Assembly (NCBI RefSeq): GCF_022539665.2
Contig: NC_081331.1
Location: 2,170,001-2,234,000 of the forward strand
DNA: 64,000 nt
Reading direction: 5' to 3'
DNA from: Daphnia carinata
Lineage: Eukaryota
Made by a program: the position numbers and the translations under genes
Notes under the pieces: model-generated
Database searches by the model: none
What the model was told of the DNA's origin: nothing
What the model saw: only the letters and a program-made list of their open reading frames with translations
In this document: positions 2-45,188 of the stretch, piece by piece
Numbering within the stretch: the stretch's first letter is position 1
Layout: each line of letters opens with the position of its first letter

Positions 2-109
2 CGACAGCTTCATGGAATGGCCTACAATCCGTTCACTAACAAATGGCATTGGTCCAAATGCACTAGTGTCAACTATGCTCTTCACGCTACAAAATCAGTT
101 CACAATTAG
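2..109 (+). CDS. COQ3: 3' end (last exon) of a COQ3-type ubiquinone O-methyltransferase paralog (COQ3a); gene starts upstream of the window
   Basis: Frame 2..109 reads RQLHGMAYNPFTNKWHWSKCTSVNYALHATKSVHN*. This aligns without gaps to the last exon of the COQ3 gene at 5618-5741 ([32 protein letters not shown]) and carries the YNP...W...(V/I)NY C-terminal signature of COQ3/UbiG. Too short for the ORF track. Confidence 0.85.
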   Translation, partial: RQLHGMAYNPFTNKWHWSKCTSVNYALHATKSVHN

Positions 110-523
110 CGTCTAACCTTACGAAAGATCTGGATTGTTATTGTTTTTCGAATACTAGGTTACCATTATGAACCTTAACGGTGGTTTGTGTTATATTTTA
201 TACTTAGTTGAACATCCGGCAATAGCTCATTGTTAATAAAAGAAAAAAATTGTTGAATGGAATACATGAGGTGCGTGGCATTAAAAAAACACTATTGTTT
301 TTTAGTAAATGGATGCAACTGCTTCAACATATGTTCACTTTGTCGTCTCGCGTTACAAGCGGTCAAATCAGGAAGAGCGCAGGGTTACATGAATTTCATT
401 TACGATACACTTCAGTTTGTTTAACGTGATGCGATTAAACTTTACCGTACAGCTTGGTGTTAAAAACCCCTTGATTCTTCGAATTTTCGCGCTGCCACGT
501 CAGCCAAGAGTTCCAGCAAAGAA

Positions 524-1382
524 TTAAATATCACGGGCTTTAATCGGTAATGCAGCACCGTAACGTTTTTTTGCCTCTGCTTTGTAAGCACTAACCATTT
601 CCCTTATAACTAGGTGTGAGAACATCTGTGAAATTTGCGTGTGCAATAACGAACGGAATTCATATGACAAGTAAAAGTCAAGCGTGCAAGTGTTAGGGTT
701 TCCGTTAAGTCCAGGACTGAATTTCCAGATTGTCACCATGTCTTTGAACAGACCCCCATCCACGCTCACCGACTTTACAAATGTTGGTGAAGCTAGCGTG
801 AAACTGCATGCACAACTTTCTGCTCCAAAAGGTGGAAATCTAAATGATAAATCGGCTGTCAGATGGTGAGGCGTTTTTTGGGATGTGACTACTGAACTTG
901 TACAGTACGGAATAAAATCCTTGTAATGCTCAACGTCAGAGACAATATTAAATAGTTGCTCCACAGAATACCTGCAAAAATGTATAATCTTCAATTAATA
1001 AAAAAAAATTGTTGGCCGACAAATTGTCTACCCTAATAATATTTTTTCAGAATAATTCTTTTTTCCGTTTTCCATTTGCAGCCCAACCGGTAGTTTAAAG
1101 CCACGGTTTGGGATAAATAGGTTCGTTGTTTTAAATTCTCTATGAAATAAACGTGAAGGGAAATTTTCCTCCTGCCATTGTCCAGCAGCTTGTGTTGCAA
1201 TGCATTGAGTATGAACGCATTTTCTACAGAAAATAAAAGGTAAAACTTTCAGCCAAGATATCGATTGAATGAAAAATGATTACAATAATTTACCTGGAAA
1301 ACGAAATCACGTTCTTCCTTGTTAGTTGCGTTTTACAACCATGAAAAATGACAGCTAGAGGTGAAGAGTAGCTTTTTAACAT
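524..1382 (-). CDS. COQ10: Coenzyme Q-binding protein COQ10 (START/polyketide cyclase fold), 3 coding exons (~1294-1382, ~1032-1223, 524-~971)
   Basis: ORF 524..994 has YSVEQLFNIVSDVEHYKDFIPYCTSSVV, LFKDMVTIWKFSPG, CTLDFYLSYEFRSLLH and MVSAYKAEAKKRYG, typical of COQ10/RatA. Two upstream GT-AG exons splice in frame to give MLKSYSSPLAVIFHGCKTQLTRKNVISFSR... (mitochondrial-presequence-like) and KKNYSEKILLG. Confidence 0.9.
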
Positions 1383-2721
1383 TTATTTTTTTTCACTAGC
1401 GATCAAGGCAAAAATATTGTTTTCCTGCAAATCGAGAAGCAATTTTTGGTTATAGAATATATTAACTCACACACTCCAGTTAAAATTCAGGGCTCTAATA
1501 TGACGTAGGCCTATTACATACACAGATAGGTAATGCAAAGCAGTCGAAACTGACACAAACTAGTAGTTTCCACGGTGCTGGTTGAAAAACGACTGACCAA
1601 TGCCTTTTTCCAATCAAGCCACTCAGTTCTCCAGCGTATCGTTTTATAAAAACCTGTACGAGCAGTAAAATGGATCCCACCTGATATGCACTCAGAAAGA
1701 GAACAGCGCTGGACTAAGAATAGAAATACAACAAAAAAGCTAACACGGCGGGTCAGATATCCTCTAGTGATATTCTCTCTTTTTCATGAAAAAATATTTG
1801 GTTGATCCAACAATTATTTTTCAAACTTTTTTAAGCTAGTAAAAAAAGGAACAAAAAAAGTGAACAACCGGTTGCTATCTGGGGCAACCTCGTCGTTCAG
1901 GACAGAACATTCAACTTGTGAACTTTCAGCCGTGTTCCCTTATAATTTTTACGGACAGAACGAATATTTGTTATTTAACTCAAGAGAGTGTTCCACGTGC
2001 AGTTGAAATTATGCTTAGGTATACTTTTACTTAAACAGGAATCAAGTTACAAGTTGTGCTACATAGGAACGTTGAGCAATGTTAGTAACTGGTTGTTACA
2101 AACTTGTTTTAAAAATAGAAGAAAGGTATGTTAGGCAGTTGGGCAATTGGGAGTTGGGAAGCTTTGCTTACTTTTTGGGTTTTCCCTATCGGGCAAAGGA
2201 TACAACTTAAATTCGAAAGATACGTTGGGCTAGGTTAGTGGTGGCTCACGGAGTCATACGTGTATGAAAAAGTAGAACATAAAGTAAAAAACAAAAAAAT
2301 ACAGGAACCATCTAGATCAGAGTAACTTTCATAGCTTTATTCATTGGATTTGTTTTGCAAAACCAACCTGCGGATACTGGATAGACGGAATTTTTAATGA
2401 GCATGAAACCGATTTTCACTCAAAACTTTCCAAAATCACGACATAACTATTTGGTTGCAGCAAGTTGTGAAATAAGAATACGTACGAAACGGACAATTTC
2501 CAGTTTATGTAGTGTTCTATGTAGATAAACGACTGAAGTTACCATATGTATTGATGCCAGCGCAAATATAAAATGTGCAATAAACCGATAGCTTGTCCGA
2601 CGACACAGTTGTTGGTTAAGCTTATTCAGAAACTTCATAATATTTAAGAACAAAGTTCCCCCTTAAATACTCCATTGTACAGTAGTCTTAGAATTAGGTA
2701 AAGAAAGAAATGTTTAGCGTG

Positions 2722-4112
2722 TTATAGTTTAATTGCTTTCAGAGTCAGGTTTTCTTCCTCGATCGAGCGAGCTAATGCCGTTACATTACCGGCTCCGAAT
2801 CCTCGCGCCCCTTTCCTCTGCATCACTTCCATGAAAAATGTTTCCTCGTTGAACAACGGTGTTGTAAAAATTTGCAGAAGATACCTGTCCGACACAGACA
2901 TAAGAATCATCCCTGCACGGCCACGTGAAGATCATAATATAAATTTACTTGTCACGACTAGTTATATCTGCGGTATCCGCTTCAGAATCAAGGAGAATAC
3001 CCAACCGCTGAAATTCGTCAATGCTATAACCTGCCGCTTGAATTTCTTTTCTTTTCCTTTCCTGAAAACAAACGAATTCCCGTCTAGTACATTAAAACTC
3101 AGGAAGGTATTTGCGTTCTTATGAATGTCATACATTTTGATAATAGGCTTTAGGTGGTGCCCGGAATTGAACTTGTTTGCGAATCATGGCATCTACGCAG
3201 CTTGTGACATCATTTGTGGCGAGCCCTATGTGTTGAAGACCCGGCCCACCATGACCTTCGAGAAAGGCACTGATATGAGCATTCTCTGTTTCAACATGCA
3301 TCAATATTTAAAAACGATTACATAACTCGTCCTAATGCACACTAACGAAAACAAATACCGTTCTCTGGAAGAGATTCAGCGATTACGATTTTTAATGACG
3401 TGTCGTCCATTGCGTCAGGATTTGCATTAGAAATTCCGGATTCGGCACAGGGCCAGTAATCCATAACGCGCAGTCTCATTCCCACTCCACCCTTGATTAC
3501 TAGACCCTCATTCAAGTCTTCGGTTGGATTCATTTGAAATTTTTGCATGCCGAGGCAATTCTGATACCATTTGATGATGTTCTGGGATTCACCGGGACGG
3601 CACACATAAGTCAGGTGATCAACATGTGTAAAAGGCTCTTCACCTCGGGCTGCAACAGATTCTTGAAATGTCGGAAGGAATGATCCCTGGTATTGCGATT
3701 TGTCCAGGAGAGTGTGGATGATATTGCCACAGCAGGATCCAACAATTGAATATCTTACTTTTCCCGCTTTGTCTTCTACTTCTGTTACCGGATGGAATAG
3801 CATTCCTCCATCTTTTTGCATTTTGTTTGTGACATGTTCCAGGTTTTTTACTTCCAACGCAACGTTAAAAACGGTATCAACCTGATTAACTGAGGACGAG
3901 AAATGAGAAAATGGCACAAATTCCGGACGATAAAGTTTCTTATTTTCTGTGACGAGGAAAATGGATTTATGGCTTCCGATCACCCACTGTGTGTTCACTG
4001 CTGTTTCTCTTCGACCTCTGAGAGAATATCCAAGTTTGTCCAAAAAATATGATGCGATTTTTTTTCCATTAGAAACGCCCAACTCGATGTGGTGTAACGC
4101 ACTTGACCGCAT
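2722..4112 (-). CDS. HPDL: 4-hydroxyphenylpyruvate dioxygenase-like protein (HPDL), 4 coding exons (3359-4112, 3134-3285, ~2949-3061, 2722-~2885); possible upstream in-frame exon from ATG 4322
   Basis: VOC-fold HPPD family with iron-ligand motifs HVDHLTYVC, GHGGPGLQHIGL and FFMEVMQR, plus C-terminal GFGAGNVTALARSI. DHLT..C, IVIAESLP and FRAPPKAYY resemble HPDL rather than canonical HPD (DHIVGN, GNF..LF). Confidence 0.85.
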
Positions 4113-4717
4113 CTTAAAAGAAAAGATGAAGAAACGTTAAACAAATCCTTGCTTTATTTGCTGCGTCTAAAATACTAATGTCTGGGCGACAGAAGCAACT
4201 TTTGGGACTGTCAGGAGTCTTGTAAAGCCATGTTTACAATTACGTGTTTCATAAACGAGTCCAGTTTTCTTCAAAAGGTCGTCCCGATTAGAACGGGATT
4301 TTTTTTTCTCAGCTTCACGCATTCGAAATAAGTTGGATGCCTGCGGTCATCCAACTTGCTTAACATTATTATTCTACACTGCTGGCGAAATAAAAGTTTT
4401 GGCTGTATCCAATTGGTTTGGACCAGTAGGTAAAGCATAAGCCACTTTCTATTCAATACGAAAAAACAGGCTGCAGTCATAGATTAACAACCCAAAGTAC
4501 CAAAAAATTAGATTTTTGTAAACAACCGAAAAAAAACCTGAATCGGAAAGCGACAATTTTTGTCATTTTCAGTTGTTGACTCCTTCTAGTCGGTCACGAG
4601 CAAGCATTTTCTTACTGTTACGTAATCCTTGCCTGTTGCTTTATACTGTTGTTGGGAAAAACGCAATCTGTTTCCCCACGTTTCTTCATTGTTATCGTTT
4701 TCAGCAAGAAATTTAAA

Positions 4718-5741
4718 ATGATGTGTTTTAAACGAGTGATAACTACAAATCAACGTTTCTGTAGAAATATTTCTCTGAAATCAACAGTAAGTGTTGAAGA
4801 GCTTCAAAAGTTCATGGCAAACAATTGGTGGGACGCTGACGGACCAGCCAAGCCCTTATACTCGTTCAATAAACTAAGGTGATTTATCGATACTATGTTT
4901 TAAAATATACCAACCCATGTAGAACTCTTTTTAAAAAATGTTTTCATTCCACAGAGTACCTTTTGTTGAACGAGGCATTCGGTCTTGTCAAAAATCAGTC
5001 GTGGCAAAGGCCACCTTGGAAAGCCCTTTAGTCGGATGCAAAATATTAGACGTCGGATGCGGTGCGGGCATTTTGAGCGAAAGTCTAAGTCGCTTAGGGG
5101 CGAATGTTACAGGAATTGATCCGAACGAAAATAGCATTGGTGTAGCTCTTGAACGCGCCCAAAAAATGAAGCTTAAAAATGTCTCTTATGCAGTCAAAAC
5201 TGTTGAAGATGTCAACCCGCCTAATGCTGTTTCACCAACTCTCTTTGACGCTATCGTCGCATCGGAAGTTATAGAACATGTGGAAAACCAAAAATTGTTT
5301 ATAAAGAAATGCATTGAACTCCTAAAGGTATTAGATTTCTGGAATCCCAATCGCTCTATTAGGAAATAAAAACGCCGATCCTTTGCTAAAGCCAGGAGGT
5401 TCTTTATTTGTAACCACCCAAAATAGGACTGCTGCTTCTTGGGTCTTCGTCATCTTTGGAGCGGAATACGTTCTTAATATCGTACCAAGAGGGACCCATG
5501 ACTGGGCAAAGTTTCTTACCCCGGACGAGCTCATTTTTGAAGCCGAAGAAAGTATACGATTCAAGAATATTTACTTTTAAAAATGGACTTAATTATATTT
5601 TGGCGTGATCTTTTAGATAATTGTCAACTACGACAGCTTCGGGGCTATTTCTACAATCCGATCGCTGATAACTGGACTTGGTCTAAAGACACAAGCATCA
5701 ATTATGCCCTACACGTACAAAAATCAAGTCATGGCAAGTGA
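4718..5741 (+). CDS. COQ3: Ubiquinone biosynthesis O-methyltransferase COQ3 (COQ3b), 4 exons (4718-4878, 4955-5327, 5392-5551, 5618-5741)
   Basis: [25 protein letters not shown] motif [78 protein letters not shown] and YNP..W..INY. GT-AG introns join these in frame. Confidence 0.92.
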
Positions 5742-7410
5742 TAAACAATGCATGGAAATGTCAAATAGTCTACGTGACCTCGGGGATGACAACCGCGAAA
5801 AACGATGATCATGAGTGATGGTCATTTTACAACTTCTGTGAAATAAATCACTTACGCTACGATTTTAAACCCCAATTCTAATTTTTTTGAAAGAGCTTCG
5901 GTGCTTAGCATAAACACATTCTAAGAAAAAATATATGGTTCTATGTCGTAACTGGTACAGGTGTACCGCACAAAAGTCCCGCTTTTGATGCTGAACTAGC
6001 ATCCGTTAGACTACTTTTTCAAATATCCGTTTTATCCGATGTTACGTAAGCGATCCAGCATCCGCGCTGTAATCCGCGTCAGCTCTCACACCCCATTTTA
6101 AACGAAAAATTACTACTTTCTTGTTGCTCAAAAATTTAGTGAGGGATAAGCATTGTCCTATCATAATTCATACAGAGAGCAACCATAGTCTACGTAACTT
6201 GAATGAAGAAGCAATCAGCATATCAGGGAATTTTTTTACTTACCGGAAAGAGTGGCGAGGAATCCTTTGTCGTGTGCAGCGCCGAGTACATCGGGTTTGA
6301 CGTCTCTGCGAGAGCTTAAGAGTTCCGCCTATGCTTCTCTGAAAAGACAAAATCATTAGAAACGGGCTTCAGAACATTCAACTGCTTTTAAAGACTTACA
6401 ATTTGCCTTCGGTGTACGAAACACGCGTTGAACAACAACAAAAATGTTGTTTATCAACCATCATGTCCTACATTCACAGATATAATCTTCCAGGCACGAA
6501 CTAGTACGCAATAATGTCTGCAAACTGGCAATGCAATGGAAAAGAAATTAGAATAGCCATATCACAGCACGAAATCACTGCCAGCATCTGCAATGTTGTT
6601 GCGTTTCTCTAACACAAGTGCAAAAAAACATGCCGATTTGCATTACACGTTTGACTGATATGTACCACAGATTCGGCACAAGACAAAGCAAATAACTATG
6701 AGCCCGACTGAAACACTGGCTGCAGCAGGACTAAAAAGTTGAATGACATTTTTGGAGTGTGAGACAAGGAGGCCAAGGTGGGGTAAGAAACTACTGCTTC
6801 AAACAAAAAAACGACACGTGTAGCCTATGTTTTTGTATTTTCCATTCCACAACTCTAAATTTTCATCGACACATGGTTTGCAAGGACACAGGTATGAACG
6901 ATAGGCGTGGAGGATGGGTGATCATTTTAAGGAAACGTAGGTCGTCGAAGCTTGAAAGTCACTAGAACACCTAAATTCGACTTCAGTTGCCATCGGCATC
7001 CCTGTGATCCATAACGTATTGAACGGTAACTTAACAGGCACTATATACATTAGCACTTGTTACAGGCCTGATTACTGACAATATAATTCCTACATTTGTC
7101 TGGTTGGTTTTTTTCTGACGATTGCTTTCACAGCTTTGCCCTCACGAAGTTTTACTGCAGACGGTTCGTGACGTGCACCAAATGCGTACCTAATGAAATT
7201 AATAGATTTATTGTGATTCTCAATAAGTACAAGGAGGACACAAAAAGAGATATCTGAAAGAAAGCATAAGGAACAAATCACGGCTTTACGTACGTTATAT
7301 TATATTATTTCAAAATGCCAAATTCTTTAAATAATTTACAATGGATAGTTACATAATACATTCATAATACATTAACTACTCGGTTATATTTACGAAGCGA
7401 ATTCATGGCA

Positions 7411-10400
7411 TCAAAACGATTTGTTCCACGGCATCTTCTTCGTCTCGTCTAACGCTGGACGTTGGATGCGATCCATACTGAGGAAAGAACGAGCCAATCG
7501 ATGGTTAATTGCTTCATTAAAAGTTCCAACAGGTAATAAGAGTTTTACCGGCTGCTGTTCTTCGGAAAACATCTCTTCAGCAGGAGCTATGAGATCCAGC
7601 GTTTGATGAGATAGCAATGACAAAGATCGAAGTAAAGGTGCCGTTGAATCTATCGAAAAATTAAGCGATGGAGGTCCACAGCTACACGCTCCCGGACAAC
7701 CGCAATCCGATTCTTTGGGAAGAAATTCGGTTTCATTAACCTCTGCAACCGGTGCATAATTACTACTCTCTCGTGTTGGCACCGCTGCGTCTTCTTCTAC
7801 CAATCGAACGATGTGGAACGGACTGTCAAGATTAATCTCATAAGGCGGTGGAGGACTGGTTGGAACGAAAGAATCAATGGTATGAAGACGACTCGGCAGA
7901 ACGGGAGACAAAAGCTGCACGGGGGTACGTCGGACCCGATTACGTTGTGGGGTTGAATTTCGTGAGCGAGCAGGTGTGGAAGACCTAGACGATGTCGGGG
8001 TAGCATTCAGCAATTCCGCTCCGCCCGTTGAACATCGAGAGTGCCTCATCAGCTCCCGTCGTCTTCTGTTACCAGGTGTTGGTGTCGGCATCACTGAAAC
8101 TCTTCCACTTTCGCAGATATTGCTACTTGTCCTGCAAATATCAGTAAACATCTTTTCTTAGTTTACCTAGAATCACAGTAATCGCTATCAAGTTTCACTT
8201 TTCCAACTCAGCCAGTTTGCCAATCTCTGCGTAATCGGGCGGTGCTTCGTAGCTTGGTGGGTTTTCTATTTCAACCTCACGCTCGTCTGAATTGTTGACT
8301 AGATTTGCAAGAAAATAACAATTTTAAGCAATTCGCCTTTCACTTCTAATACGTACTTATTTGGGAACGGATAAAATCTAGTCGGGCTTGTCGTTCTCTC
8401 ATCAGTTGTGAATGAGATGACATGCGATAGAGTAATGCCAATATGCTGGCAATAAAAAGAACGACACCTGTAACCAATTGATTTGATTACGTTTAATTTT
8501 ATGCTGAAACGTTGTTATGTTAACCTATACCTAAGGTGGCAACGAGGAGGACAAACGAAGTGGCACCAAAGTCACCGTAACTGCTTATTTTCGGAAAATA
8601 ATATTTCGGTGTATGTGTCATCCACCATGTAGGATCTTTTGAAGGCAACACGCAATCGAGTTAGGAGATAGTTAATCCATTTCAGCAATAATATTACGAC
8701 TAATATACCTTTATCGCTACAACTTGTTTGTTCGTCGCTGTCGTCTCCGCAATGGTTGAATCCATCACATCGCAAATCGGACGAAATGCAACGATGATTC
8801 AAACAGACAAAATCTTTCATGGCGAAGCATTCTGCGGATAACACGAATGGTCAAGATCAACTTTGTAATTTGTCTAAAGCTATTTGTGATATTATATTAG
8901 TACCGGTGTAACTAAAAACGGCGTAAGCAATGGCCATTTTGAATTCACTTGACAATCTTCCTCGCAATCGTATGTAGAAACCAACGTCTATTGGAATCAC
9001 GTATTCTGAATTCACGGACTGCGGGCTTATCTCAGTTGTTAAGGATTCCATCAACGGTGCCAGCGATATCAGCCCCTGACGGATTTCTAGCATCGTTCCT
9101 CGCTCTTTTTAAATGAGCAAACGATTACTTAGTATAGGACAGTTTTTTAAAAGAGAATTACAAAAATTATGTACCAAGACTGCTGAGTTGTTCTACTCGA
9201 ACGAGTAAATGAGATTTAGGAGTTTGCTGATAGTTTGGCACTGGTTTCATGAGCCAGATGCAGTCCTATAATAAAAAGTTTTTGTTTAATTATTTTATTG
9301 GTAAAAAGTACCGTTTAATGAAATTACATAAAGTTTGGCAGAATCCGGAGATGACATGTTGTACATGGTAATCACACCGCCATAGTCGTCCACCAACCCA
9401 CCGCAATCCGTAACAGGAATCTCGATTAACTCTGCGGATTCTATTCAAAGAAAGATGTCGTCAAAACGCTTTGTCATAGTTGATAACTTTGATAGCTTTA
9501 CCGTTAATGAATCTGTAGCTGGCTCGGTAACCGAAAGCCCTTCCGCCATTAGCGAAAAATCGGATGGTTAGCTGATTGCTGTGGATCAGGACGACTGGCG
9601 GTCGGAATAACGAACTGCCAAGTGCATACTGTCTGATTTCGTTAGCATCACTTATCTGAAAAACAAGGATAACCATTGTTCTTTATAGAAACAGCATTAA
9701 ACGAATAACAAGTCCTAATTTCAATACCTCGATGAACGATGACAATCCGAGCGCAAAATCGTCAAAAATGAGCATGATGGATCCCGTGAAAGAGGAGGAA
9801 TTGTTGTAATCGAGGTTTTGCAACTTGACTTCATTGCTGTAATCTTGCGGATAAACTGTCGGGAAATGCGGACTACTAATGTAGCCATTGTCGCCATGCC
9901 TGCCGCCAATCGTCCTTGTATTCACTGCAGCAAAGAATGTGATTAATTGTTCATCTTTCCTTTAGAGAAGGTGAAAGATCTTACCAACGGAAGCGAATTC
10001 AAGTAGGAAAGCGTAATCATAGCTACGACTAAAGACAAAATTTATCGTTAGCGTTCGGCCGACAGAATGATAATGATCCTGCGTGCGTGAATCATGCACC
10101 AACTTGAAGGACTTGCCACAAATCAGGCGTGGCGTCGAATAAAAGTTTTCTTTGATAAGTAAGTGATCGCATGCACTGTTACGAAAAGAAGGAGAAACGT
10201 ATTAATCTGTGAATTCGAGAACGATCCAGAACGAAGCCAAACAAATAGTACAAGATGGTTACGTAAACAAAAACTAATAGGATTCATTTTTAGCGTAAAA
10301 AAAAAAAAAAAATCAAGACCGTGCTATTCTTCGATAGTTTCCAAGACTTGTTCAAATTTCGTTAAGTTATTAGTTAATAGAAAGAAAAAAAAACTTACCT

Positions 10401-10877
10401 GCACCGGTTTGCGGCTGTAACATTGGCAGTGACTTCGCAACTGGGAAGATTGAGGATTTTCACTCGCATTTGAATAGAGCAAGCTGGACAAGTGGTCAGC
10501 TCTACTGAACAAAGGCGACTGTTTCCAATTCCGGCTTGCTGTTGACCATACATAGTAGAATAGTAACTGCGAGACGTGATAGAAACGATCCGGTCATAGT
10601 CGAGATTCTTGGCTATAATAGTGCCATTTTCTCCTTGGTCGAAGAAGAAACGTTTCGGTGCGTAAGGATTCTGAGTGCATATATCATGCAGCATCACATT
10701 GGTTGGAGTCGGTTGTTCCGGCAGTGCGGAACGGGCCGTAGATTTGCCTACTGTCCATAGCAGCAACAAACATCCTGATAAAAGACAATCAGTTAGTTGA
10801 AAACTATAAACAAATCGAGAAAGAAGATTCTTACCTAGAACAGACGCCAGTTTGGAATAGAACAAGCGTGTTGAGTA
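7411..10877 (-). CDS. Type I membrane protein with CUB domain(s), one LDL-receptor class A repeat, a TM helix and a long Pro/Ser/Arg-rich tail; multi-exon, start codon not located
   Basis: Signal-peptide-like LGCLLLLWTVGKSTA; CUB motifs GYISSPHFPTVYPQDY, IMLIFDDFAL, NQLTIRFFANG...GYRASYRF, DCGGLV...DCIWL; LDLa CFAMKDFVCLNHRCISSDLRCDGFNHCGDDSDE; hydrophobic segment ~8430-8560; tail ORF 7411..8151. Confidence 0.75.
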
Positions 10878-11542
10878 GCTTCAAGACAACTGAAACATCG
10901 ATGGAATATTTGCCTGCCTGATGGATGTCCACGTGAACAAAAAAAGAAAATCCAATTATCAACTCCCCAATTATTTAGCAACGGAAAAGGCCAACACCGC
11001 ATGAAATAGGCGCGTGTACCAAACTGCGCACGAAGCCAAAACAATGTCGTACGAGAAAATACCAAGCGAAATGAGTCACAGGCCAGAGGTACTCAGAATC
11101 ACAAAAAAACTGTATTTTCGCTATTGCTAATTTTAGAAACAAGACGCTGGTAATAAAAAGTTATTTCATCATTCGTTCTGAAAGAAGTTAGAATGAAAAT
11201 AATAAAAAATAAAAAATGTGTTCAGGAGGAGACAAAGATCAAATGACATGCATCAATTGTCTAGGTTGTTGCTCACAAGTCTCGCCATGGTAACTACAAT
11301 GGCACAAATACATTTGACAGTTTAATTGTGAGAAAAAAAAAAAATGATTAAAAAATAGGGAGGGGGCGTCGTGTGTTTGATTTACATCGAGAGAGAAAAC
11401 TAGACACAAAAGTGTGGACGGCATCATCATTATCGTTCAAACTGGCGAAAAGCATCAAGATCGTCAAAAGAGATACGTCGGAGAAAGATTTAATCCAATT
11501 AAGCAGTGGATAATCTCGTTAAGAAGGAAGGGAAACATTTGT

Positions 11543-14500
11543 TCATCGGTGATGTGCAGCCGTCAAGAGGAGAGAGATTAGGGCGGCAATCATTACCAGC
11601 GGAGAAGTCATTAAACCTTTGGGGGCGTGATTGTAGGTGGGACAATAGGTGCACTGATAACTGCCGCATACCTGGCAAATGTCCATAACGTAAAGTTCGT
11701 AAGTTTCGACGACCGTTTCGTTGAACCGCTCGGGAGCGTAGTAGTCGTAGACGCGGACGGGCAAGTAGCGAGTCATGTTGGCTACTGGAAGCCAGCGCTC
11801 GAATGTGAATTTGACACAAGTATCATCGCCGTCCAGGGCGTCAAAATAGAAGACGACTTTGTGGTCGAGGAATTTGGCCCGTCGCAGATTGCGGACCTTT
11901 CTAGAGAGGATGTACTCATCCAGCACCTGTTGTTGCATGTAGTAGCCCGTCGGGACGGCCACGTCCAGCACTGCCATGCCAGACTGGTTCGATTCCCGCT
12001 GGTTCGTCCAGCTCGAGCAAATGTCGTACGTGATGTGCGAGTTGTTGCGACCTGAGAAACTTAAGCGAGGCAACACGGAAAAGGCCTTCACCGCCGGCGG
12101 TGTTACGAAACGGTTGACGTCCACGTTGTACTGCAAAGAAAGCTGGGCGATGGCGTAACCGGCACCACGTGCTTGAATCTTGACAGTACCCCAAGCGTTT
12201 GGAATCTCCATAAACTGGGGTGTGGCCAGGTTCTGCTCCGTTATGTACATGGTCCGTTGTAACTGAGGATTTGACGTCGCCTCCACGTGAAGAGTTAGCG
12301 AGGTCACTTCACGAATACGGTGACGTACCGTATATTCAATCAAGGCCTATTAAGCAATATGCAAGAATTAAACTAAATTCTGTGTGTGTGAAAAAAAAAA
12401 AAAAATTATTAATTTATACCTGTGTAGCGATGATGGTATCTTGAGTGGAAGCCCAGCCCCCATCAGTCAACCGGTGCGTATTGAGCCATTTGACGATGGG
12501 TTCAACGAAAAGCTCTTGACGTCCAACATACGTCAGCAAAGCGTAAGCTGTAGTTTCGACATTGGTGGCGTCAAACGGATTAGGCAATCGGGGAAGGAGG
12601 AAAGGCCTTTGATTTTCAAGCCTTTGCGCTGGTAAGGGAACAGGTTCTCGACCCCAATAAATGTAACCACCATCTTCGCGAGCGTGTCGACGCAGAAGGC
12701 CAAAAGCCGCTTCCGCCGACGTACTCTTGGCCAACATCATGGCGTAGGCTACAATAGCCACTTCGTACGGATCACCAGCGCGATCCAGTAAGTTAAGATT
12801 ACGGTCGAGCCAAGAGATAGCGCGGGAACGGGAGACGGCCACTCTTGGGCCTAATTCTCCGGGCAAATCCCGAATGACCGTTAAGGCGATGACGACATGA
12901 GCCGTGAGAGATATGTTGCGATGTCGAATGGGGTCATTGAAGCCCCACGATGTCGTACTGTTCATTTTACGATCGGCGAAACGCGGCGCCACTTCGTAAA
13001 AGGCTCCTTCGGGCGACTGGAACTGGATCATCCAGTCGACCGCCTTTGCAATGACACCCGGATCGATGTACAAATAATTTTCCCACTCGTTGAAATTGGC
13101 TTCGGCCAATATACGGGCGCAGAAGGCCGTTAACCAAACGGATTTGGACGAATATTCCCAATCGGCTCGGAAATACGAAAAGGCGCCGTCTCTGTGCTGG
13201 AACGACAACTGACGTTGATACGCGATATTCAGATGGTAAAACGCCTGCAATACACATCCATCGATTAGAAGGTAATCCTGTTGAATACAAAGAACGAACA
13301 GTCGCTTACCTGACGATCGATTTCACGTTTCCTTTGGGTAGTTAAACGCATATACTTGACGGTGTAAAGATTAGCGGCGAAACTGAACATGTTCTGTTCG
13401 GCGCAATCCATCGGAAGGGTCAAGAGCGAAGTGGCATTAACGGGCATAGTGGGGAAAGCCGGGCCGACGACATCACCGACAACCGAAACTCGGGCTCTGT
13501 TAGAGCCAAAAACGTAGTAACGATCCTTCTCGTACGGAATGATGGGCGTTTCCGTGACGTTGACGTAAACGTATTGCAAGAACCAGGCGCGGTTACTCAA
13601 GTCAAGCATGACGGATGTGTGACGGAACTGCGGCACACCGTCAGCTTCCACTCGGACGCGACGGACGACTTGATCTTTGCGGATCAGCGATTTGGCCTGA
13701 ATAGTGACTTCGATATCGCCAAGTCTCGTTGGCACGATGGGAATATAAACCACCTGTTATACGAAAGGCGTTATTAATTAATGGTAAAAAAAAAAAAAAG
13801 GGAAAATGAAAAGAATTATTAACCTGAGAGCCTTGAGCTGGAATCCAGGTGAGATGCTGCTTTTCACCACGCGACGTTCTGGCTTCGTAAGATTTGACTT
13901 CACCAAACTCTTCGACGTGAACGAATTTGTAGTCGGGCGAATCGGCAAGCGTGACAACAACGTCGGCTTCGATGGTGGCGTAGTTGAAGAGGGTGATCCT
14001 GATACCGACTTGCTCACCTTGGCGACAATTGGTCGGCATTTCAACGTTCATGTAGAACGGCCGGTATCCGGCAAACTCGCGGACGTGCCTGACCAAACCG
14101 AAACCGTTTTTGGGGCTGACGGAAAAAGCCGAAACGACCCAATGAGTCGGAATTTCCGGAATCTGAACGGTAAAGATCGAGTGGCCGTGCGGGCCGATGT
14201 TGATGTCCTTCCACAGCCAAGAGTTCTCGTACATGCGGAGCAGACGATTGATTCGCTTCAAACGGTATTCGGCCAATTCTTGACGCTGATATGATGGACA
14301 ACCTGCTTCGTCAGATCTATCTTCGCAATCGTACTGGCCGTCGCAACGACGGTCCGATCGGTAACAAGATCCAGACATGCAAGCCAAAAGGCCGAGTGTG
14401 ATATTACAGGAATCCGGCCTTCGAATAACGTTGGCGTCGGTGAAGACGACCAAGGAAGCATATTCGAACGTGCGATTAGCATCAATGCCAAAGGTAGAAG

Positions 14501-17435
14501 CTGGATAATTAACCACCGTCTCAGCATCACCTTCGCGGGACGTCCAGTAATGCCTCAATGTTCCGTTAAGAGATTCATCAAATGACGTCATTTTCGTAAT
14601 GACTTCTGCGTAACTCAGTTCATTTCCAGCCTGAAATTTTTCCACATTAATTTGCAAATGAAATGAATATGAAAATTAGAATCTTCGATGATGCCTGCAT
14701 GTTGAAAAATCCCTTGTCGATAGCTGAAATTCCGACGTAGGCGCCAGGATCGCCGAGAACGACAACTTCGACCGTGTCGCCGGTTTTGTCTTTCATCGGG
14801 TTGAGAGTGAGCGTAAAGTTATTCCTGGAAATTCCGTTGACGGGGAAGGTGAGACTGTCGGCGACCACTTCGCCGTACTTGGCTACGTGGTAGATGACAA
14901 CCGTAGCGACTGGAGCCATCTCGGCGCTCAGAGGGATGGCCAGTGTCGTCACACTGGGCGAACTGCCATGAGAGCCCGTCAAAAGAACAATACCCTTGGA
15001 TATGACAATGTAATTGAAGGTCTCGGCGTAAAAGTTGGTCCTCACGTGCAGGATGAGGTATTCACCCACCTGGGAAAATAACATGACATTGTCAATGGAA
15101 TTCAAGAAGAAACAAAACAACGTGAGTGACATACTTTTGGGCCTCTGGTAGATGTGAGAACTTTGATATGTTTATCGCCAATTGAATAGTGAGTAAGGGC
15201 CAGTAATTCGGCAGAGGCCCGCTCTCCGTATCCGTCTTTATAGTTGGCCGTTAGTTTAAGGGCACTGATCTCATTTACTAAATCTTTAACGCGTTTATCG
15301 CCCGTCCCGACATTGCTTCCAGTACTCTGAGCAAGCTCGGACCGTAAATCAATCGTAAACTCCCAAATGCCCGGCTGTTCCGGCAAAGCTTTAGCCTCAC
15401 GGGCTTCTAGCGTGCGGGAAGCGCTCGAACGGAACTGCACCGTCGGCCGGATCTCTAATCGGTCGTATCTAAAACGTTCCGCAGGCAGGATCGATCCGTC
15501 GTGGAAAGACACGGCCAGCTGGAAAGAAAGAAGAAAATGAAAGAAATTTTCAAAATGGGCTTGCCATTATCCCACGGGTTGTTAAACATAGTAATTGCGA
15601 CGTACGAAACAAGTGAAAGGCATGGCCGGCTTGATGACTTGTGGACTTCCGCCAAGAAAGTTGAGCTTCAACGAAGAGTTGTAGATGCGAGCCGTTGAAA
15701 ATCCTTCGACGTAGTCTTCACGGTAGCGATCGCCGACGATGGCCGTAATACGCAATTCAATTCCATCCAGTTTGGGCACCATTCGTTGGAGTTCTGCCAT
15801 GGGGTATTTAAAAGTGTAGAAGCCTCGGAACTGCAACATAAACAAATTTGAATAAGAAAAAAAAAATTGAATGAAACAAGCAAGAGAAACGAGATTCAAC
15901 ATTTCTTTAAAAAAAACTTACATCTCTGAGGACTTCTGATCCCTCGCGGGTGTGTGGAGTGAACCATCCGCCTCGAACTTCCTTGAAGGTGAGATTACGT
16001 TCTATGACCGAGTCGCGAATGCCTGGGCGGCCTACGATCGGCGCGTTCAATCGGAGGGGTTTGAACGTGGCCTTAAGGGTCAGATTGCCTCGGACGGGCG
16101 CGCCGCTCGTGTAATTGGCCATGACAGTTCCATGGATAAAGTCATCCGAATCGAAATAAAAGGCCGGCATGGTGACGTTGACCTCGAATCGCGTCTGGTA
16201 GTATTCCTCAACGTGGAAATGCTCCTCCTCGGTCTGGCCCTGGGCCGTCACGCGGATCGTCCACTCGCCGAAGGTGGGCTGGTCAGACAGGGCGTAGTCC
16301 AGGCTGACGGCACCAAAGTTGGACTGCGGAAGGCATGAAAAGAATGGAAATGATCCAACGATGATGATGACGATAATTCATGTTGATTATTGTATTGTTA
16401 CCTGTCGAGAGAGCCAACGGCGTACGACGAACCCGCGGGGGTCAATCATGTACACGTCGACGGCATCATCGAACGCACGCAACTCCGTGTTGATCGGTAT
16501 CGTCCGGAACCTCACTATTATTGCACAAACGAATGGGAAAAAATCATTAACCAGATATACGAACAATGTCCAAAATGGCGACTACAAAAACCTCAAAATT
16601 TCCCTTTTCTATGTTGTATCGACAATCATGTAATTTGTATGAATCGTTGAAATGTTGCGTGATTTACCGATTTGGCTCTGGTGGTAGACGGGTTTTTCCG
16701 TTTGAATGAAAATCGTCATGGAACGTTGTGAAAAGTTGAGAATGGTTTCGTTGAGGAAGGCGGTGCCGCCCAGGGCTCGATCCGTGTTTCCTTCGACGCG
16801 GAGTCGGTACTGGCCTGGAACCGTTGTGCTCGGTATCTGTAGCGCCACGAACGGAATAACACACAGAGAAAAGGACATTAATATTTCATTGTTATGACTT
16901 CATTTTTACAAAAGAGAAAAAGAAAGCAAATGAAAACAAACTTTAATGAGAAGAGTTTCCGGAATGCCCGGCTTGCACTCTTGCGTGGCCGAGCCAATGT
17001 CCACGCCATTACGTAAAATGGAGGCACGGACCGACAGGGTGATCGGCGAGCTCAAAATCGAGACGGCAACTCGATAAATTTGGCTGGGCCGAACGATCCG
17101 ACTGGCCACGATGAAGTAAGTCCTTAAAACAAAACAAAACAACACAATGGCGAGGTATTAGTTTACACGGTGCAACTCAATTTTCCTGGTTTACAACTTA
17201 AACGATCATCTTACGGTTCTTCAAAGATAGCGTTTGTGTTGTCCCCAACGCCAAAAGGCCGGCGGGCGAACGGGTCAATATTGTTATTAAACAGATTTGG
17301 CCTTTGATTGTTGTCTCTGCTGGTATCCTGAAAGTTGATACGAGTCGGTTGCGTCGGGGCGCTCTGTTGGGCGGCTGTCGAATCCAGCAAAAGTAAAACA
17401 AAAAGGGACGATGCGGCACCGAAGAAAGGCTTCAT
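11543..17435 (-). CDS. Mcr: Macroglobulin complement-related protein (Mcr/TEP6-type thioester protein with internal LDLa repeat), ~13 exons
   Basis: Signal peptide MKPFFGAASSLFVLLLL; A2M MG domains (IFIQTEKPVY, FHVEEYYQTRFEV, SWLWKD, PFYMNVEMP); LDLa CMSGSCYRSDRRCDGQYDCEDRSDEAGC; thioester-domain motifs PMDCAEQNM, SVWLTAF, VETTAYALL, GGWASTQDT; receptor-binding domain SGMAVLDVAVPTGY, VRVYDYYAPE; C-terminal hydrophobic tail. Confidence 0.93.
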
Positions 17436-38962: not shown

Positions 38963-40779
38963 TTTATTTCTTTTTGGCGTCTTTCCCAGCAGTGAGACCA
39001 GCCCCGGCATTGAACTTAAACAAGATAATATCTCCATCTTCAACGACGTAAAGCTTGCCTTGTTGTCGATACTTTCCTGCTGCCTATTTTTAAAAATACA
39101 GGTAATTACCAAGATATATATATATATGCACTTCACAATTACTTTGACAGCTGCCTCACTGCCTTCCTCTTTTAAGTCGTTGAATTTAAAAACTTCCGCC
39201 ATTATAAAGCCTTTCTCGAAATCAGAATGGATACGTCCTGCCGCCTGTGGAGCCTTAGTTCCTTTCTGAAGAACGAAAAAAGAAGAAAACATGGAGCGAA
39301 AAAAATCCGGTTATCAAGAAGTGTTAAAAATAAAAATACAACCAAGGTGTAAGAAGAAGTAACGAACCTGAATGGACCAAGCTTTTACTTCATCGTGACC
39401 CGCAGTGAAGAAGTACATCAATTGCAGGACCTTATAGCCTTGCACGATAATCTTCTCGAATGTACTGTTCGCTTTATTTTCTTCGCAGAAAGCTTTCCTT
39501 GCATCAGCATCCATGTCGGCTATTTTTCCTTCGAAGGCACCAGAAAACGGAATCATCATTGCGCCAGGGTCGTTGGCATCAATCCATTCTTTGAGCTTCG
39601 GTAACCTATGGAAACATCAATGAGAAGTCAGCGATAGCCATTAGGTAGGCATAGTCTCAAGCACCATTTGTTCTTCTTCCGGATGTAATCTTTTTCTGCC
39701 ATGTTAACGAGATAAACCACAGGTTTCGATGTGATGAACAAGTGCTTATTCAAGACTTCAATCTATAATGAAACGATTTAGAAACACTTAATTTCTGGAT
39801 ACCATTAAACATATTATCATTTATCGTTCATTTTCTTTACTTCCTGTACGTTCCAGTCACCATACCGAATATGCTTTGCCTGATCAACAAGGTGCGCCTT
39901 AACTTTGCACAAAATATCCTAAGAGCGAAACAATGTTACAAAACAGACATGTGATAAGTATAATTTCTATTACGTATTCTGTCTTCATTTTTTTATCGCT
40001 ACGCATTAACGATTCCGTTTTTTTTATGGTGGCCAAAAGATATTCTTCATCTTTTAACCTGAGTTCTTCGTTAATGATTTCAATGTCGCGAACAGGGTTG
40101 ACGTCGCCTTCAACGTGGGTAATTTCTTCACTTTCAAACGTACCTTTTTATTCAAAAATGTTCTTAGTACCTTTATTGGTGTGATTTTCTACATTTTGCG
40201 ATTACTTACGACAAAGATGAAAAATCGCATCGACACCTCGGATATGAGAAAGAAAAGCATTTCCCAGTCCTTGACCTTCATGAGCTCCTTTTACTAACCC
40301 AGCAATATCCACAATATTAAGATAAGCTTGGACTTTACTATGTAGAAAATGAACAATAATTGAGAGAACTTTGATAAGGAAATCCTATTTCTAAATCTTA
40401 CCTAGCTGGTTTGTAGTGTTCACAAAGCCAATCAAACCTCTCATCAGGAACTGCTACCCTACGTACAAGAAAAAAATCAAAGTTTAATATCAGCTTTAAA
40501 TGATTTTTTATAAATTCAAAACTAAAAAAAAGACTTATTTTCATTAGGATCAATGGTACAAAACGGGAAATTTTCTGCAGGTGCTGAACTTTTGGTCAAA
40601 ATATTGAAGAAGGTGGATTTTCCTGTGTATACATAAAAATTTGGTTACTATCCACTTTACAGAAAATCATGTAGTGACTAACCAACATTTGGGAGTCCGA
40701 CAATCCCAATTTTAAGACTAGTACCAACACGTCCAATGAGAGGTTTAGGTTCTGGAGCAGCTTCTTTCTTTGGTGGCAT
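38963..40779 (-). CDS. OLA1: Obg-like ATPase 1 (YchF), copy A, ~10 exons
   Basis: MPPKK...[126 protein letters not shown]. Confidence 0.95.
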
Positions 40780-41133
40780 TTTTACCTACAAAATGTACAG
40801 CAAAAAAAAATTACAATTAATGAGCACATGGGCTGCAGGGCAACTACGTGACAGATATTCAAATATATTAATTATTCTTTGCTGCTGAAGGATCTCAGCA
40901 CCACAGTAAGACTGAGATTTTGAGCTTGTAATAAAATATTAATGAAATTAGAAACAAAAAACACTTTACAAACCTAGAAGAAAAATTTCACGAAGTTGAT
41001 TCCAGTAAAACTAAAACAAAACCAAACCGGTTAAAGTAGGTATAGCCCCAGAAGAGGGCTTAAGCGTAGGTGATGTGTATATTCGAACCGCTAGATGCCT
41101 CAGTTGCGGGTACGGAAACAACCAACATCGGGA

Positions 41134-42740
41134 GCCCTGCGCTGGTACGTACTAGCGTGCCAACTTATGTTTTTTTACAGTTTTTGCCCGAATATTCGGT
41201 GTAATTCAAAAATGGCTAATTTGAGAAGAAAACGAATGGCCTTTTTTGAATCAGCGTAAAATTTTGATTATACTGTGTGATTTTTATCGAATTACAAGTG
41301 ATGTCATTTTTGGCCGATTTTGACAAAAAAATGAAAAAGTGAGAAGGCTATAGCCTTCTCACTTTTCTCTCACTCTCACGAAAAAAATGAAAATGAAAAT
41401 GAAAAAAAAAGAAAGAAAATGAAAATGAAAATTTTTGACAAAATTTTAAATTTCGCTTAAAATACATGATTTCGGTTTAGAATTGTATGCTTATTACGAA
41501 AATCCAATTTATTTTTCAATTGGCTTTATGGTTTTTTAATTAAACGTAAAAAACGAAAAAATAAGGAAAGTCGGGCTTACTATTTAGTCGGGCTTAAAAA
41601 TTATTTCTGCAAAATATGACAGTCACCGAAATTGGTTGAATATCACAGGATATACTCAAAATTGAATGCTGATTCTGGGAAAATTGCTATTTTTTCCGTT
41701 AAGTCAATCGTTTTTGAGATACACCGAATATTTAGAAAAGTAATAGCGCGCCAGTACGCACCAGCGCAAGCGCGATGCAGCACAAATATTCAATGTATTT
41801 CAAAAACGGTTGGCCCAATGAAAAAAGTAACGACATATTTGTAATTCTCCTTTAATTTCGAATCAAATTCATATATTTTTATAGCTAAAATTAGATGTAA
41901 AAAAAAATCTAAATCAAAATTAAGCCCGACAAAATAAGTCGGGCTTAATTTTGAGTATGCTGAAATTCGGCTTTGTAATTTTGAAATTAGATTTGATTTG
42001 AATTAACCTAAAATAAAACGCAAATTTCATGGGAAATATTTGTTTTCTCGTCAAACCAGCCGTTTTGTAATAAATGGAATTAACGCGCTGCTGGCGCGCA
42101 AACATTTATCACCCGTTTTTTCCGTTTATTAATAAAGCTATAACCCCAAAGTAAAAACAAACTTCATTTTTGTGATTCTCGTTCAATTTTGAATCGAAAT
42201 CATGTATTTTTAATCAAATTTATATTTTGGCCAAAAATGGAAAAGTGGAAAGGCTATAGCCTTCCTACTTTTGTCAAAATCAACAAAAAATAAAAACTCT
42301 TAGAATCCGATAAAAATCACACGGAACAAGCAAAATTAAACGTTGATTTTGAAAAAGTGGTTTATTTTTGTGTCAAATCAATCGATTTTGAATTATACCC
42401 AATATTCAATGGAATGCTAAGGCGGCAGTACGACCAGCGCTAGCGCGCCAGTACGCACCAGCACAAATATTCGGTGATGCAGCCCAAATATTCGGTGTAT
42501 TTCAAAAATGGTTGTTCCAATGAAAAAATGAACGACATATATGTGATTATCGTTTAATTTCGAATCAAGGCCATGTATTTTTATAGCTATACCTATAAAA
42601 AAGTCTTATCTAAAAATAAGCCCGAAAAAGTCGGGCTTAATTTTCGGTATGGCAGAAATTCAGTTTGTAATTTTAACATTAAATTTGATGTAAATTAACC
42701 TAAAACGCTGATGCCAGAAAAAATATTTGTTTTTTCGTTT
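41134..42740. mobile_element. Non-coding AT-rich foldback/MITE-like repeat made of inverted and direct modules with palindromes
   Basis: ~41188-41560 recurs inverted and diverged at ~42110-42410; ~41743-42015 recurs directly at ~42441-42705. Perfect 32-bp palindrome at 41335-41366, with a degenerate copy at ~42241-42272. Hairpins AAGCCCGA...TCGGGCTT at ~41916-41952 and ~42617-42644. No coding homology recognised. Confidence 0.65.
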
Positions 42741-42804: not shown

Positions 42805-44616
42805 TCATTTCTTTTTTACATCTTTTCCAACTGTGAGACCAGCCCCAGCATTGAACTTGAACAAAATTATATCTCCATCTTCTACAACATAAAGTTTTCC
42901 TTGTTGTCGGTACTTCCCTGCAGCCTAGACAAAACATGTTAACATTGATTAAAATTACCAAAAAAAAAAAATGCCTATAAATTACTTTAACGGCTGCCTC
43001 ACTGCCTTCTTCTTTCAGGTCAGCAAATTTAAATACCTCTGCCATAATGAAACCTTTTTCAAAATCTGAATGAATTCGACCACCTGCCTGTGGTGCCTTG
43101 GTTCCTTTCTGTAACAAGCAGGTAAAAATTTGGTTTGAGAATTGTTTTTGTTTACAAGCATGTGTGTGACTGACTTGAATGGTCCAAGCTTTGACCTCAT
43201 TAGGGCCCGCGGTGAAGAAGTACATTAAATTCAAAGACTTATAGCCCTGAGCAATAATCTTATTGAAAGCACTGCTAGTTTTCTTTTCTTCACAAAAAGC
43301 ATTACTTGTGTTGGCATCCATATCAGCTAGCTTGGCTTCCAAGGTCCCGGAAAACGGTAACATAATGGCACCTGGATCATTTATATCGATCCATTCTTTG
43401 AGCTTTGGTAACCTATGGAAGAATAAGAAGTAACTTGCCTGTCCATTAATTTAATATATAGTAATATTAATTACGCACCACTTATTCTTCTTCCGGATAT
43501 AATCGGCTTCTGCCATGTTAACCAGATAAATAACAGGTTTAGATGTGATAAACAAATGCTTGTTCAGAACATCGATCTAGATCACCACAAATAGTTTTAA
43601 TTCCGGGTTTGTGAGGAAAACTCAGAATTTGGAACTTTATTTATTTCTTACTTCTTGCACGTTCCAATCTCCGTAACGAATGTGTTTTCCTTGGTCAACA
43701 AGATGAGTCTTAATTTTGCAAAGAATATCCTAAAAATGAGAGCGCATATTACACAAACTCACAGTCTGAATACTATAATTTGGTTACGTATTCTGTCTTC
43801 ATCTTTTTATCTGTACGCATAAGTGATTCCACTTTTTTAATTGCAGCCGTCAGAGATTCTTCATCTTTCAACCTAAGTTCTTCATTGATGATTTCAATAT
43901 CTCGCACAGGATTGACGTCGCCTTCCACATGAGTTACCTCTTCACTCTCAAAAGTACCTGTTTTTGTTCAAAGAATCAAAATTAACAATTGGGAGTTTCC
44001 CCGATCAGTAGTATAGTTTCTCATGACTATTGCTTACGGCATAGATGAAAAATCGCATCGACGCTCCTTATGTGAGAAAGAAATGCATTTCCCAAACCTT
44101 GGCCTTCATGAGCTCCTTTTACTAATCCGGCAATATCCACTATGTTTAGGTAAGCTTCAATTTTGGGACTGTGATAAAGCTAGAAAATGAAGAACAATCA
44201 AGAATACAAAGGATGGATGATATGATTCTTCAAACTTTACCTTGAAGGTTTATAATGCTGAAGCAGCCAATCAAACCTTTCATCAGGGACTGCTACCTTA
44301 CGTGAACACCAAACCAAAAGTTTAATATGACAGTAAGCAAAAATTTTGTTCTTAATCACTAAAACAACACTTATTTTCATTCGGATCAATGGTGCAAAAT
44401 GGAAAATTCTCTGCAGGTGCTGCACTTTTTGTCAGCACATTGAAGAAGGTAGATTTGCCTATGCAAAGTTGAAAGGTGAGACCATATGTCATGATTATTG
44501 GAAGAACACACTTACTTACCAACATTTGGGAGTCCAACAATTCCTATTTTCAGACTTGTACCAATACGTCCAATAAGAGGTTTCTGTTCTTGAGCAGCTT
44601 CTTTTTTAGGGGGCAT
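42805..44616 (-). CDS. OLA1: Obg-like ATPase 1 (YchF), copy B (tandem paralog with the same exon layout)
   Basis: [104 protein letters not shown]. Intron positions match copy A; no frameshift or stop seen. Confidence 0.93.
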
Positions 44617-45188
44617 TGCAGTCTCTGTATATTAAAGAAATGGTTATAAATGTGCATATATCTCAAACCATTGTCAGTCATATCATGAAGTAGACTTCAA
44701 CTTTATGTGATAAACAGAAAAAAATGACAGCTTTGACAAATATGCCTTCTGTCGACAGCTTATTCTTTCTGTTTGACGATTTCGATGTTTAATGCAAGAT
44801 ATTATTTCACTACATCTAGTAATATCAAATACACGGCACAAGATTTCAGGATACCTTGAACAACAAGTCACGAAATCGGTACAACCCACCGGCACTGTGG
44901 CAAGTGGCAAGTACGTTGCAGACTAGAAACGGTGGCAAGGCTAGAACGTTGCCAGACTGGGGACATAAATCCCTATTTAAAAAAAATAAAATCCCCGCGC
45001 CTAAAACTGCATTGCCAGAGGGGCGTAATACCCCAAACCGAGCTCCACTTTCCACTGTTTGGTAACGAATGCAGAATTGAAATGTGTGGGAAAAAAAGTG
45101 GAAAAATAAAGTGGAACCTAGTGCGGCCAGCTGGAAAGGGAAAAAAGAAATGACTGAGGCTAGATTCGAACTCGGGTCTCCAGCTTAT

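Follow-up and report, generated by a model that had tools for sequence, protein, structure and literature searches.

Four adjacent coenzyme Q genes in Daphnia: a putative metabolic gene cluster with a duplicated HPDL gene

Metabolic clusters of unrelated genes are well known in fungi and plants. Here we report that four genes connected with coenzyme Q (CoQ) lie side by side in Daphnia carinata, at the left end of a 64,000-nucleotide (nt) stretch of contig NC_081331.1 (assembly GCF_022539665.2, positions 2,170,001 to 2,234,000; hereafter the window): the tail of one COQ3 gene (COQ3a), COQ10, HPDL and a second COQ3 gene (COQ3b). All are intact and adjacent, their frames are open, their introns (60-76 nt) have GT-AG ends, and gene numbering indicates that the four-gene order is common to five Daphnia species. 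On balance we lean, though not strongly, towards reading the four genes as a small CoQ cluster that arose through duplication and relocation in the Daphnia ancestor or close to it, and that is held by shared regulation plus the interlocking of its genes.

A compact and interlocked locus

A first-pass annotation of the window had claimed a run of COQ3a (+), COQ10 (-), HPDL (-) and COQ3b (+), and each gene was found in its place with its frame open (Table 1). It had also described the adjacent families as non-homologous, and here again the analysis agrees: three families stand side by side, and at least three adjacent, non-homologous genes of the same pathway are one mark of a eukaryotic metabolic gene cluster (the roles being taken from the literature, with COQ10 as a carrier and not an enzyme). 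The span given there, 2 to 5741, takes in the four genes but ends too early on the right. HPDL has a further coding exon upstream, at 6244-6291, and its first coding intron (4113-6243, 2131 nt) contains all of COQ3b in antisense orientation, so the cluster extends to at least about 6400. The HPDL model with five coding exons (6291-6244 included) equals XP_057371717.1 letter for letter, as the COQ3b model does XP_057371728.1; the second coding exon of HPDL itself begins with ATG. Proteins of the window are 100% matches to D. carinata entries at NCBI. Transcription of HPDL probably starts upstream of 6400, judging from a putative intron at 6339-6399 in its 5' untranslated region (UTR).

Poly(A)-type signals between COQ3a and COQ10 comprise AATAAA at 235 on the plus strand and only TATAAA/AATATA, at about 197-202, on the minus strand, where neither AATAAA nor ATTAAA occurs in the gap; the 3' UTRs of these two genes probably overlap. 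The HPDL stop and the COQ10 start are 1339 nt apart, with no overlap seen. Pfam gave no family match in 12 selected other frames between the four genes.

Table 1. Features of the CoQ locus in the D. carinata window (window positions)
Feature	Position	Strand	Details
COQ3a 3' end	2..109	+	Last coding exon, truncated by the window edge; C-terminus of protein P0186 (270 amino acids)
COQ3a-COQ10 gap	110..523		414 nt separating convergent stops
COQ10	524..1382	-	3 exons, 1382-1294, 1223-1032, 971-524; 242 amino acids
HPDL (clustered paralog), coding exons 2-5	2722..4112	-	4112-3359, 3285-3134, 3061-2949, 2884-2722
HPDL exon 2 to COQ3b start	4113..4717		605 nt; candidate divergent promoter
COQ3b	4718..5741	+	Exons 4718-4878, 4955-5327, 5392-5551, 5617-5741; 272 amino acids
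HPDL first coding exon	6244..6291	-	16 codons, then GTAAGT donor
Probable HPDL 5' UTR intron	6339..6399	-	61 nt, GTAAGT...TTTCAG ends

Identity of the four genes

Both COQ3 proteins group with animal COQ3 and retain the invariant methyltransferase motifs. Against a TIGR01983 cut-off of 102.95 bits, COQ3b scores 258.6 and the whole COQ3a protein (P0186) 289.6, and the COQ3a tail inside the window also matches this family (E 1.2e-4). The tail and the final COQ3b exon share 62% identity, and COQ3a is the more conserved of the two paralogs; D. carinata COQ3b has a His-to-Tyr change and a two-residue deletion near its N-terminal motif. In a tree, these proteins and their orthologs make up one Daphnia clade that is split into a and b types, with both subgenera in each. 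A FastTree phylogeny of 121 rows (the best 120 of 2356 matches plus P0186) adds no other sequence to that clade, and the essential COQ3 of Daphnia is therefore probably in the cluster. According to the passages of PMC12938788 that concern mammals, COQ3 performs both O-methylations of CoQ synthesis, and COQ10 acts outside the core complex.

The three-exon COQ10 model encodes 242 amino acids with no internal stop. Its product matches Pfam PF03364 (START/polyketide-cyclase fold; E 6e-17, 62.6 bits), has COQ10 proteins as its closest named relatives, and is 73% identical to D. magna COQ10. The N-terminus is basic and presequence-like, its first 30 residues including no acidic residue. A conservative, cladoceran-like COQ10 (P0218) was seen on one contig; it could be the ortholog from an outgroup or point to a further COQ10 copy. 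No second Daphnia COQ10 was found among 9 matches from a search covering 15 candidates.

The dioxygenase had been called HPDL on first inspection, and the orthology check against HPD upholds that name: tree, TIGR01263 score and pocket residues all say HPDL and together rule out a canonical HPD. A tree of 35 rows (LG+G4, with long-branch warnings; vertebrate HPDL represented by an NCBI-named lizard protein, human HPDL being absent) groups it with proteins that carry the name HPDL in a lizard, a horseshoe crab and a prawn, and the split from three HPD-type proteins has 100/100 support. TIGR01263 gives it 190 bits and the lizard HPDL 223, with HPD types at 395-445 and the cut-off at 277. The iron triad (H182/H286/E375) is invariant in 20 of 20 rows. 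Residues S226, P239 and N241 of human HPD are linked to homogentisate formation in the text cited (PMC13260116); the equivalent positions are L/V/A in 17/17 HPDL rows, and HPD-type rows have S and P in 3/3 and N in 2/3.

An AlphaFold model of HPDL (predicted local distance difference test score, pLDDT, 82.8) has the fold seen in 4-hydroxyphenylpyruvate dioxygenase (HPPD) and in hydroxymandelate synthase (HMS). A fold search matched HPPD and HMS about equally (TM 0.71-0.76 for both), so the fold leaves HPD versus HMS chemistry undecided. Neither this protein nor the second, unclustered HPDL of Daphnia (see below) has a clear basic N-terminal targeting peptide; the clustered copy carries 2 basic and 2 acidic residues in its first 30, which is not typical of a presequence. 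Arthropod HPDL proteins have His where vertebrate HPDL and HPD carry Gln. Mammalian HPDL, in the passages cited, yields 4-hydroxymandelate en route to the CoQ head group (PMC13111500; PMC12422950; PMC12938788).

Gene order in Daphnia and beyond

Numbering puts the four genes together in all four other Daphnia species with usable accessions (4/4), which represent both subgenera; D. galeata is outside this count. Consecutive numbers are taken here to indicate neighbouring genes, a reading that fits the DNA of D. carinata. COQ3a, COQ10, HPDL and COQ3b correspond to KZS21428/29/30/31 in D. magna, to GHT06_007977 to 007980, in sequence, in D. sinensis, and to E9HTS9/S8/S7/S6 in D. pulex, where all lie on one 95,211-nt scaffold. 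The first three genes recur as KAK4019718, 19 and 20 in a second D. magna assembly, in a second D. pulex assembly all four share a contig and their RefSeq numbers lie close together, and XP_046644391-397 of D. pulicaria comprise HPDL, both COQ3 and COQ10 on one contig. Among Logan assemblies, one contig size (28,029 nt) recurs for pieces of COQ10, HPDL and COQ3b. For each of the four genes, these assemblies also contain full-length, spliced proteins of the D. magna type, which points to transcripts of all four; the full-length HPDL proteins come from contigs of 1.5-1.6 kb, probably transcripts.

An assembly artefact is ruled out by the same order in other species and by paralogs that are 62% identical, and bacterial contamination or recent horizontal transfer by spliceosomal introns and placement in animal trees. 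The pulex-magna split is given, in the portions of the sources cited, as 131 or 145 million years (PMC9820869; bioRxiv 2025.09.08.674940), and a comparison of D. pulex with D. magna describes, in the portion cited, macrosynteny that is kept and "rapidly decaying microsynteny" (bioRxiv 2024.09.05.611358).

The microsynteny check proposed with the first-pass annotation thus favours linkage in the four other Daphnia species, by numbering, and gives no support for it outside the genus. In Tachypleus, HPDL and COQ3 are on contigs of differing size (161.3 and 59.4 Mb; the comparison does not cover paralogs), and COQ3 or COQ10 matches flank 0 of 4 metagenome HPDL loci, the flanks of which measure only 0-2.2 kb. 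On present evidence the cluster looks specific to Daphnia.

Two HPDL genes and a probable move

Two HPDL proteins are present in each of D. carinata, D. sinensis, D. magna, D. pulex, D. pulicaria and D. galeata. In D. sinensis the second gene is 588 locus tags from the cluster and in D. magna 360 accessions; in D. pulicaria and in one assembly of D. pulex it is on a separate scaffold or contig. Three trees place both copies in a clade made up of Daphnia alone (support 96/92, 99/98 and 87/84), and the clustered copies are monophyletic in a mixture-model tree of the main exon (87/85). The idea that the clustered gene is confined to the magna group did not hold up. Between D. carinata and D. pulex, identity is 72% for clustered HPDL versus 85% for unclustered HPDL, and the clustered gene is, as judged from such comparisons, the faster-evolving duplicate. 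The HPDL of D. magna (P0250) and the Logan proteins P0003 and P0254 have an N-terminal extension like that encoded by the upstream exon; the HPDL models of D. sinensis, D. pulex and D. pulicaria are without the upstream coding exon.

Two further loci bear on the origin of this arrangement. One, L001, encodes an unclustered-type HPDL adjoining a gene with BTB and pentapeptide-repeat domains; the other, L002, comes from an outgroup and encodes an HPDL placed outside the Daphnia clade. The DNA downstream of HPDL aligns between L001 and L002 with a score of 85, reached by 0 of 100 shuffles (maximum 42), and comparison of this DNA with the window in the same orientation gave no alignment (28 for L002, 33 for L001). 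Because L002 shares downstream DNA with L001 and not with the window, the unclustered site is probably ancestral, and the COQ site would have received a moved copy. With its 123-nt upstream flank, L002 gave no discrimination between the sites (10 of 100 shuffles reached the score), and the one opposite-strand score of 45 (shuffle maximum 43) in 12 flank comparisons was treated as chance. The direction of the move is only probable, since the HPDL of L002 may be orthologous to just the unclustered copy. L001 and the window HPDL share three downstream introns; the duplication therefore took place at the DNA level, and retroposition is ruled out.

Were the linkage instead an ancient arthropod or branchiopod one, HPDL would have started out at the COQ site, and the copy now outside the cluster would be the one that moved. 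The outgroup contigs are short and a tree with L002 grouped with the unclustered copy is not rejected (approximately unbiased test, p-AU 0.16), both of which suit such a history. It is very improbable all the same: L002 shares flanking DNA with the unclustered site, and the flanks of the metagenome loci and the Tachypleus contigs described above speak against it.

Other observations on these loci can be added. The BTB/POZ and pentapeptide-repeat gene of L001, which we take to be KCTD9-like, lies at about 150-1200 on the minus strand, head to head with the unclustered HPDL. The non-coding block shared by L001 (about 3750-4030) and L002 (about 1770-2045) is some 270 nt long and possibly represents a regulatory element or else an RNA or exon that is not annotated; Rfam gave no match in L001-L004. 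Alignment scans with HPDL recovered four relatives among 138 candidates in metagenome_contigs, all on contigs below 4.4 kb, and none among 8 candidate stretches in genome_contigs or 50 in viral_contigs. A further locus, L003, carries an apparently intronless HPDL at 94-1281, with an unbroken alignment of 399 columns.

The divergence of the clustered copies raises another explanation, that they are a specialised offshoot which handles or makes a modified quinone or a methylated mandelate or benzoate, housekeeping CoQ being left to the unclustered HPDL together with COQ3a and, it may be, another COQ10. Clustered HPDL, COQ3b and COQ10 do have longer branches, a conservative COQ10 exists in the form of P0218, and clustered HPDL gained its N-terminal exon in some species. 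Such a role nevertheless seems improbable, as 12 compared positions, iron triad and HPDL-type pocket residues included, are identical in both HPDL paralogs, COQ3b retains its invariant motifs and exceeds the TIGR01983 cut-off, and the second Daphnia COQ10 was missing from the matches reported above.

Counts of lineage-unique substitutions in D. carinata versus D. magna, compared in five uncorrected tests, were 16 vs 3 for COQ10 (p 0.004) and 12 vs 1 for clustered HPDL (p 0.003); those for COQ3a (7 vs 3), COQ3b (10 vs 6) and unclustered HPDL (5 vs 2) were not significant. Relaxed or shifted selection on the D. carinata cluster genes is possible.

Coincidence, interlocking or selection

A model of random gene order with an assumed 15,000-30,000 genes and 12-20 CoQ genes, which ignores housekeeping-gene crowding and the number of genomes scanned, gives three different CoQ genes in a row a probability between 1.5e-6 and 3e-5, which becomes 4e-4 to 9e-3 when 300 pathways are considered. 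The same model puts the probability that a relocated copy settles beside a pathway gene at 7e-4 to 2.5e-3, and that of some CoQ gene pair being adjacent at about 0.4-2.5% on its own. A chance origin of the four-gene adjacency is unlikely.

The genes could still have met by chance in a compact, duplication-rich genome and then have been frozen in place by nested and overlapping units, without pathway co-regulation. Such an accident would agree with the position of COQ3b inside an HPDL intron, the probable overlap of the COQ3a and COQ10 3' ends, the further local duplications in the window and the probability just given for an adjacent pair. It would also agree with our search for a shared promoter motif, in which none stood out (6 motifs, three intergenic stretches). 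However, it requires two coincidences, COQ3 by COQ10 and then HPDL by both. The COQ10-HPDL junction, where no overlap was seen, is also kept in all five species, and nesting at the coding level may cover only part of the genus, given the models of D. pulex, D. pulicaria and D. sinensis without the upstream exon. This account is the main rival to a selected cluster, and we regard it as the less likely of the two.

Several points weigh against a selected cluster, the want of a shared motif among them. Very many windows have been scanned, so that a 1e-3 coincidence will arise somewhere, and nesting with probable 3' overlap could preserve the order even if the pathway were not under selection as a unit. 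The steps of HPDL, COQ3 and COQ10 are at opposite ends of the pathway, with COQ10 outside the core complex according to the passages cited (PMC12938788), so there is no channelling argument; the remaining COQ genes are not in this locus. Synteny in the other species was read from accession and locus-tag order and from shared contig sizes, not from DNA. Monophyly of clustered HPDL is missing in three other trees (when forced it is not rejected, p-AU 0.24), and the grouping of L002 with the unclustered copy noted above counts here as well. Finally, the clustered genes change faster than the unclustered HPDL, carinata-pulex identity being 72, 62, 46 and 73% for the four of them versus 85%.

With these reservations, we tentatively propose that Daphnia built a selected, co-regulated CoQ cluster, in which a moved HPDL duplicate came to lie beside COQ3 and COQ10 with the second COQ3 nested inside it. 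The COQ3 duplication around COQ10 would be older than the split between the subgenera, and a copy of HPDL, made at the DNA level, would have arrived from a site hundreds of genes away, the other copy remaining there. To supply the CoQ head group, the clustered HPDL would convert 4-hydroxyphenylpyruvate into 4-hydroxymandelate; the ring O-methylations would fall to the two COQ3 enzymes, and COQ10 would carry the CoQ product. A compact locus of this kind may allow the four genes to be switched jointly, their expression being coupled through the divergent promoter region between HPDL and COQ3b, the same-strand HPDL-COQ10 pair and the convergent ends of COQ3a and COQ10.

Other features of the window

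The next gene to the right of the cluster carries a low-density lipoprotein receptor class A (LDLa) domain, and the domains that Pfam identifies on that side are LDLa, alpha-2-macroglobulin, UEV/Vps23, ribosomal L6, La/LARP1, RhoGAP, MYND and YchF. No further CoQ family was found there by Pfam in 147 + 13 window frames, which were mostly drawn from 210 stop-to-stop frames of at least 70 amino acids, the excluded ones being mostly frames opposite known exons. An alpha-2-macroglobulin-family gene with an LDLa domain (11546-16377, minus strand), presumably of the macroglobulin complement-related type, adjoins another LDLa-domain gene at about 7411-10880. Two YchF/OLA1-type GTPase genes (38966-40780 and 42807-44617) form a duplicated pair with 71% identity; repeats, both inverted and direct, lie between the copies at about 41190-42740. 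A tandem duplicate resembling membrane transporters, 65-80% identical, occupies 47341-50286 and 50986-53727; its single frames gave no Pfam match, and our impression is that it resembles a sodium-solute symporter.

Relation to known clusters

Human HPDL, COQ3 and COQ10A/B are on different chromosomes. Animals do have small pathway pairs and operons, such as the divergent human PPAT-PAICS pair and the C. elegans coq-3 operon, which share promoter DNA or transcription units. The Daphnia cluster differs from these in bringing together three unrelated families of one pathway, and it is not an operon because its genes are on both strands. Daphnia HPDL is like mammalian HPDL in its clade, iron triad, HPDL-type pocket residues and HPPD/HMS fold; unlike it, the Daphnia gene is duplicated and intron-containing, and its product has no clear basic targeting peptide and has the arthropod His in place of Gln.

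The closest parallel that we can draw is with the DAL (allantoin) cluster of yeast, where, according to the passages cited, non-homologous genes of the same pathway were likewise gathered in one lineage, and where DAL4 and DAL7 are duplicates with progenitors at the old site (PMC2776167), as we infer here for HPDL. The same passages describe a cluster that holds 6 of 8 pathway genes, with demonstrated co-regulation and a known metabolic shift (PMC2776167). By comparison, the Daphnia locus comprises three families of a longer pathway, in an animal host and with nested genes, and its co-regulation is putative. For animals, the review names, in the part cited, immune and developmental clusters (PMC2776167).

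No published description of this CoQ locus was found in the full-text literature, a search that left most subscription papers and supplements outside its scope. NCBI has already annotated each gene; apparently undescribed until now are the conservation of the cluster, its nesting and the duplicated HPDL.

Conclusions

The CoQ block of Daphnia is likely a rare animal metabolic gene cluster. If so, it would be the equivalent, in an animal and for a core mitochondrial pathway, of yeast's DAL cluster, and its presence throughout the genus would make it a tractable animal case for the origin and persistence of clusters. Its genetic context would also count as evidence for a contribution of HPDL to CoQ synthesis in an arthropod. 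The first-pass annotation had extended such evidence to invertebrate HPDL in general; since the clustered gene is one of two Daphnia paralogs, the context speaks for the clustered copy and not directly for the wider group. The HPDL head-group route, so far shown in mammals according to the papers cited, becomes directly testable in an invertebrate: the clustered and unclustered HPDL genes of Daphnia can be targeted separately, and the two COQ3 enzymes might divide the two O-methylation steps between them.

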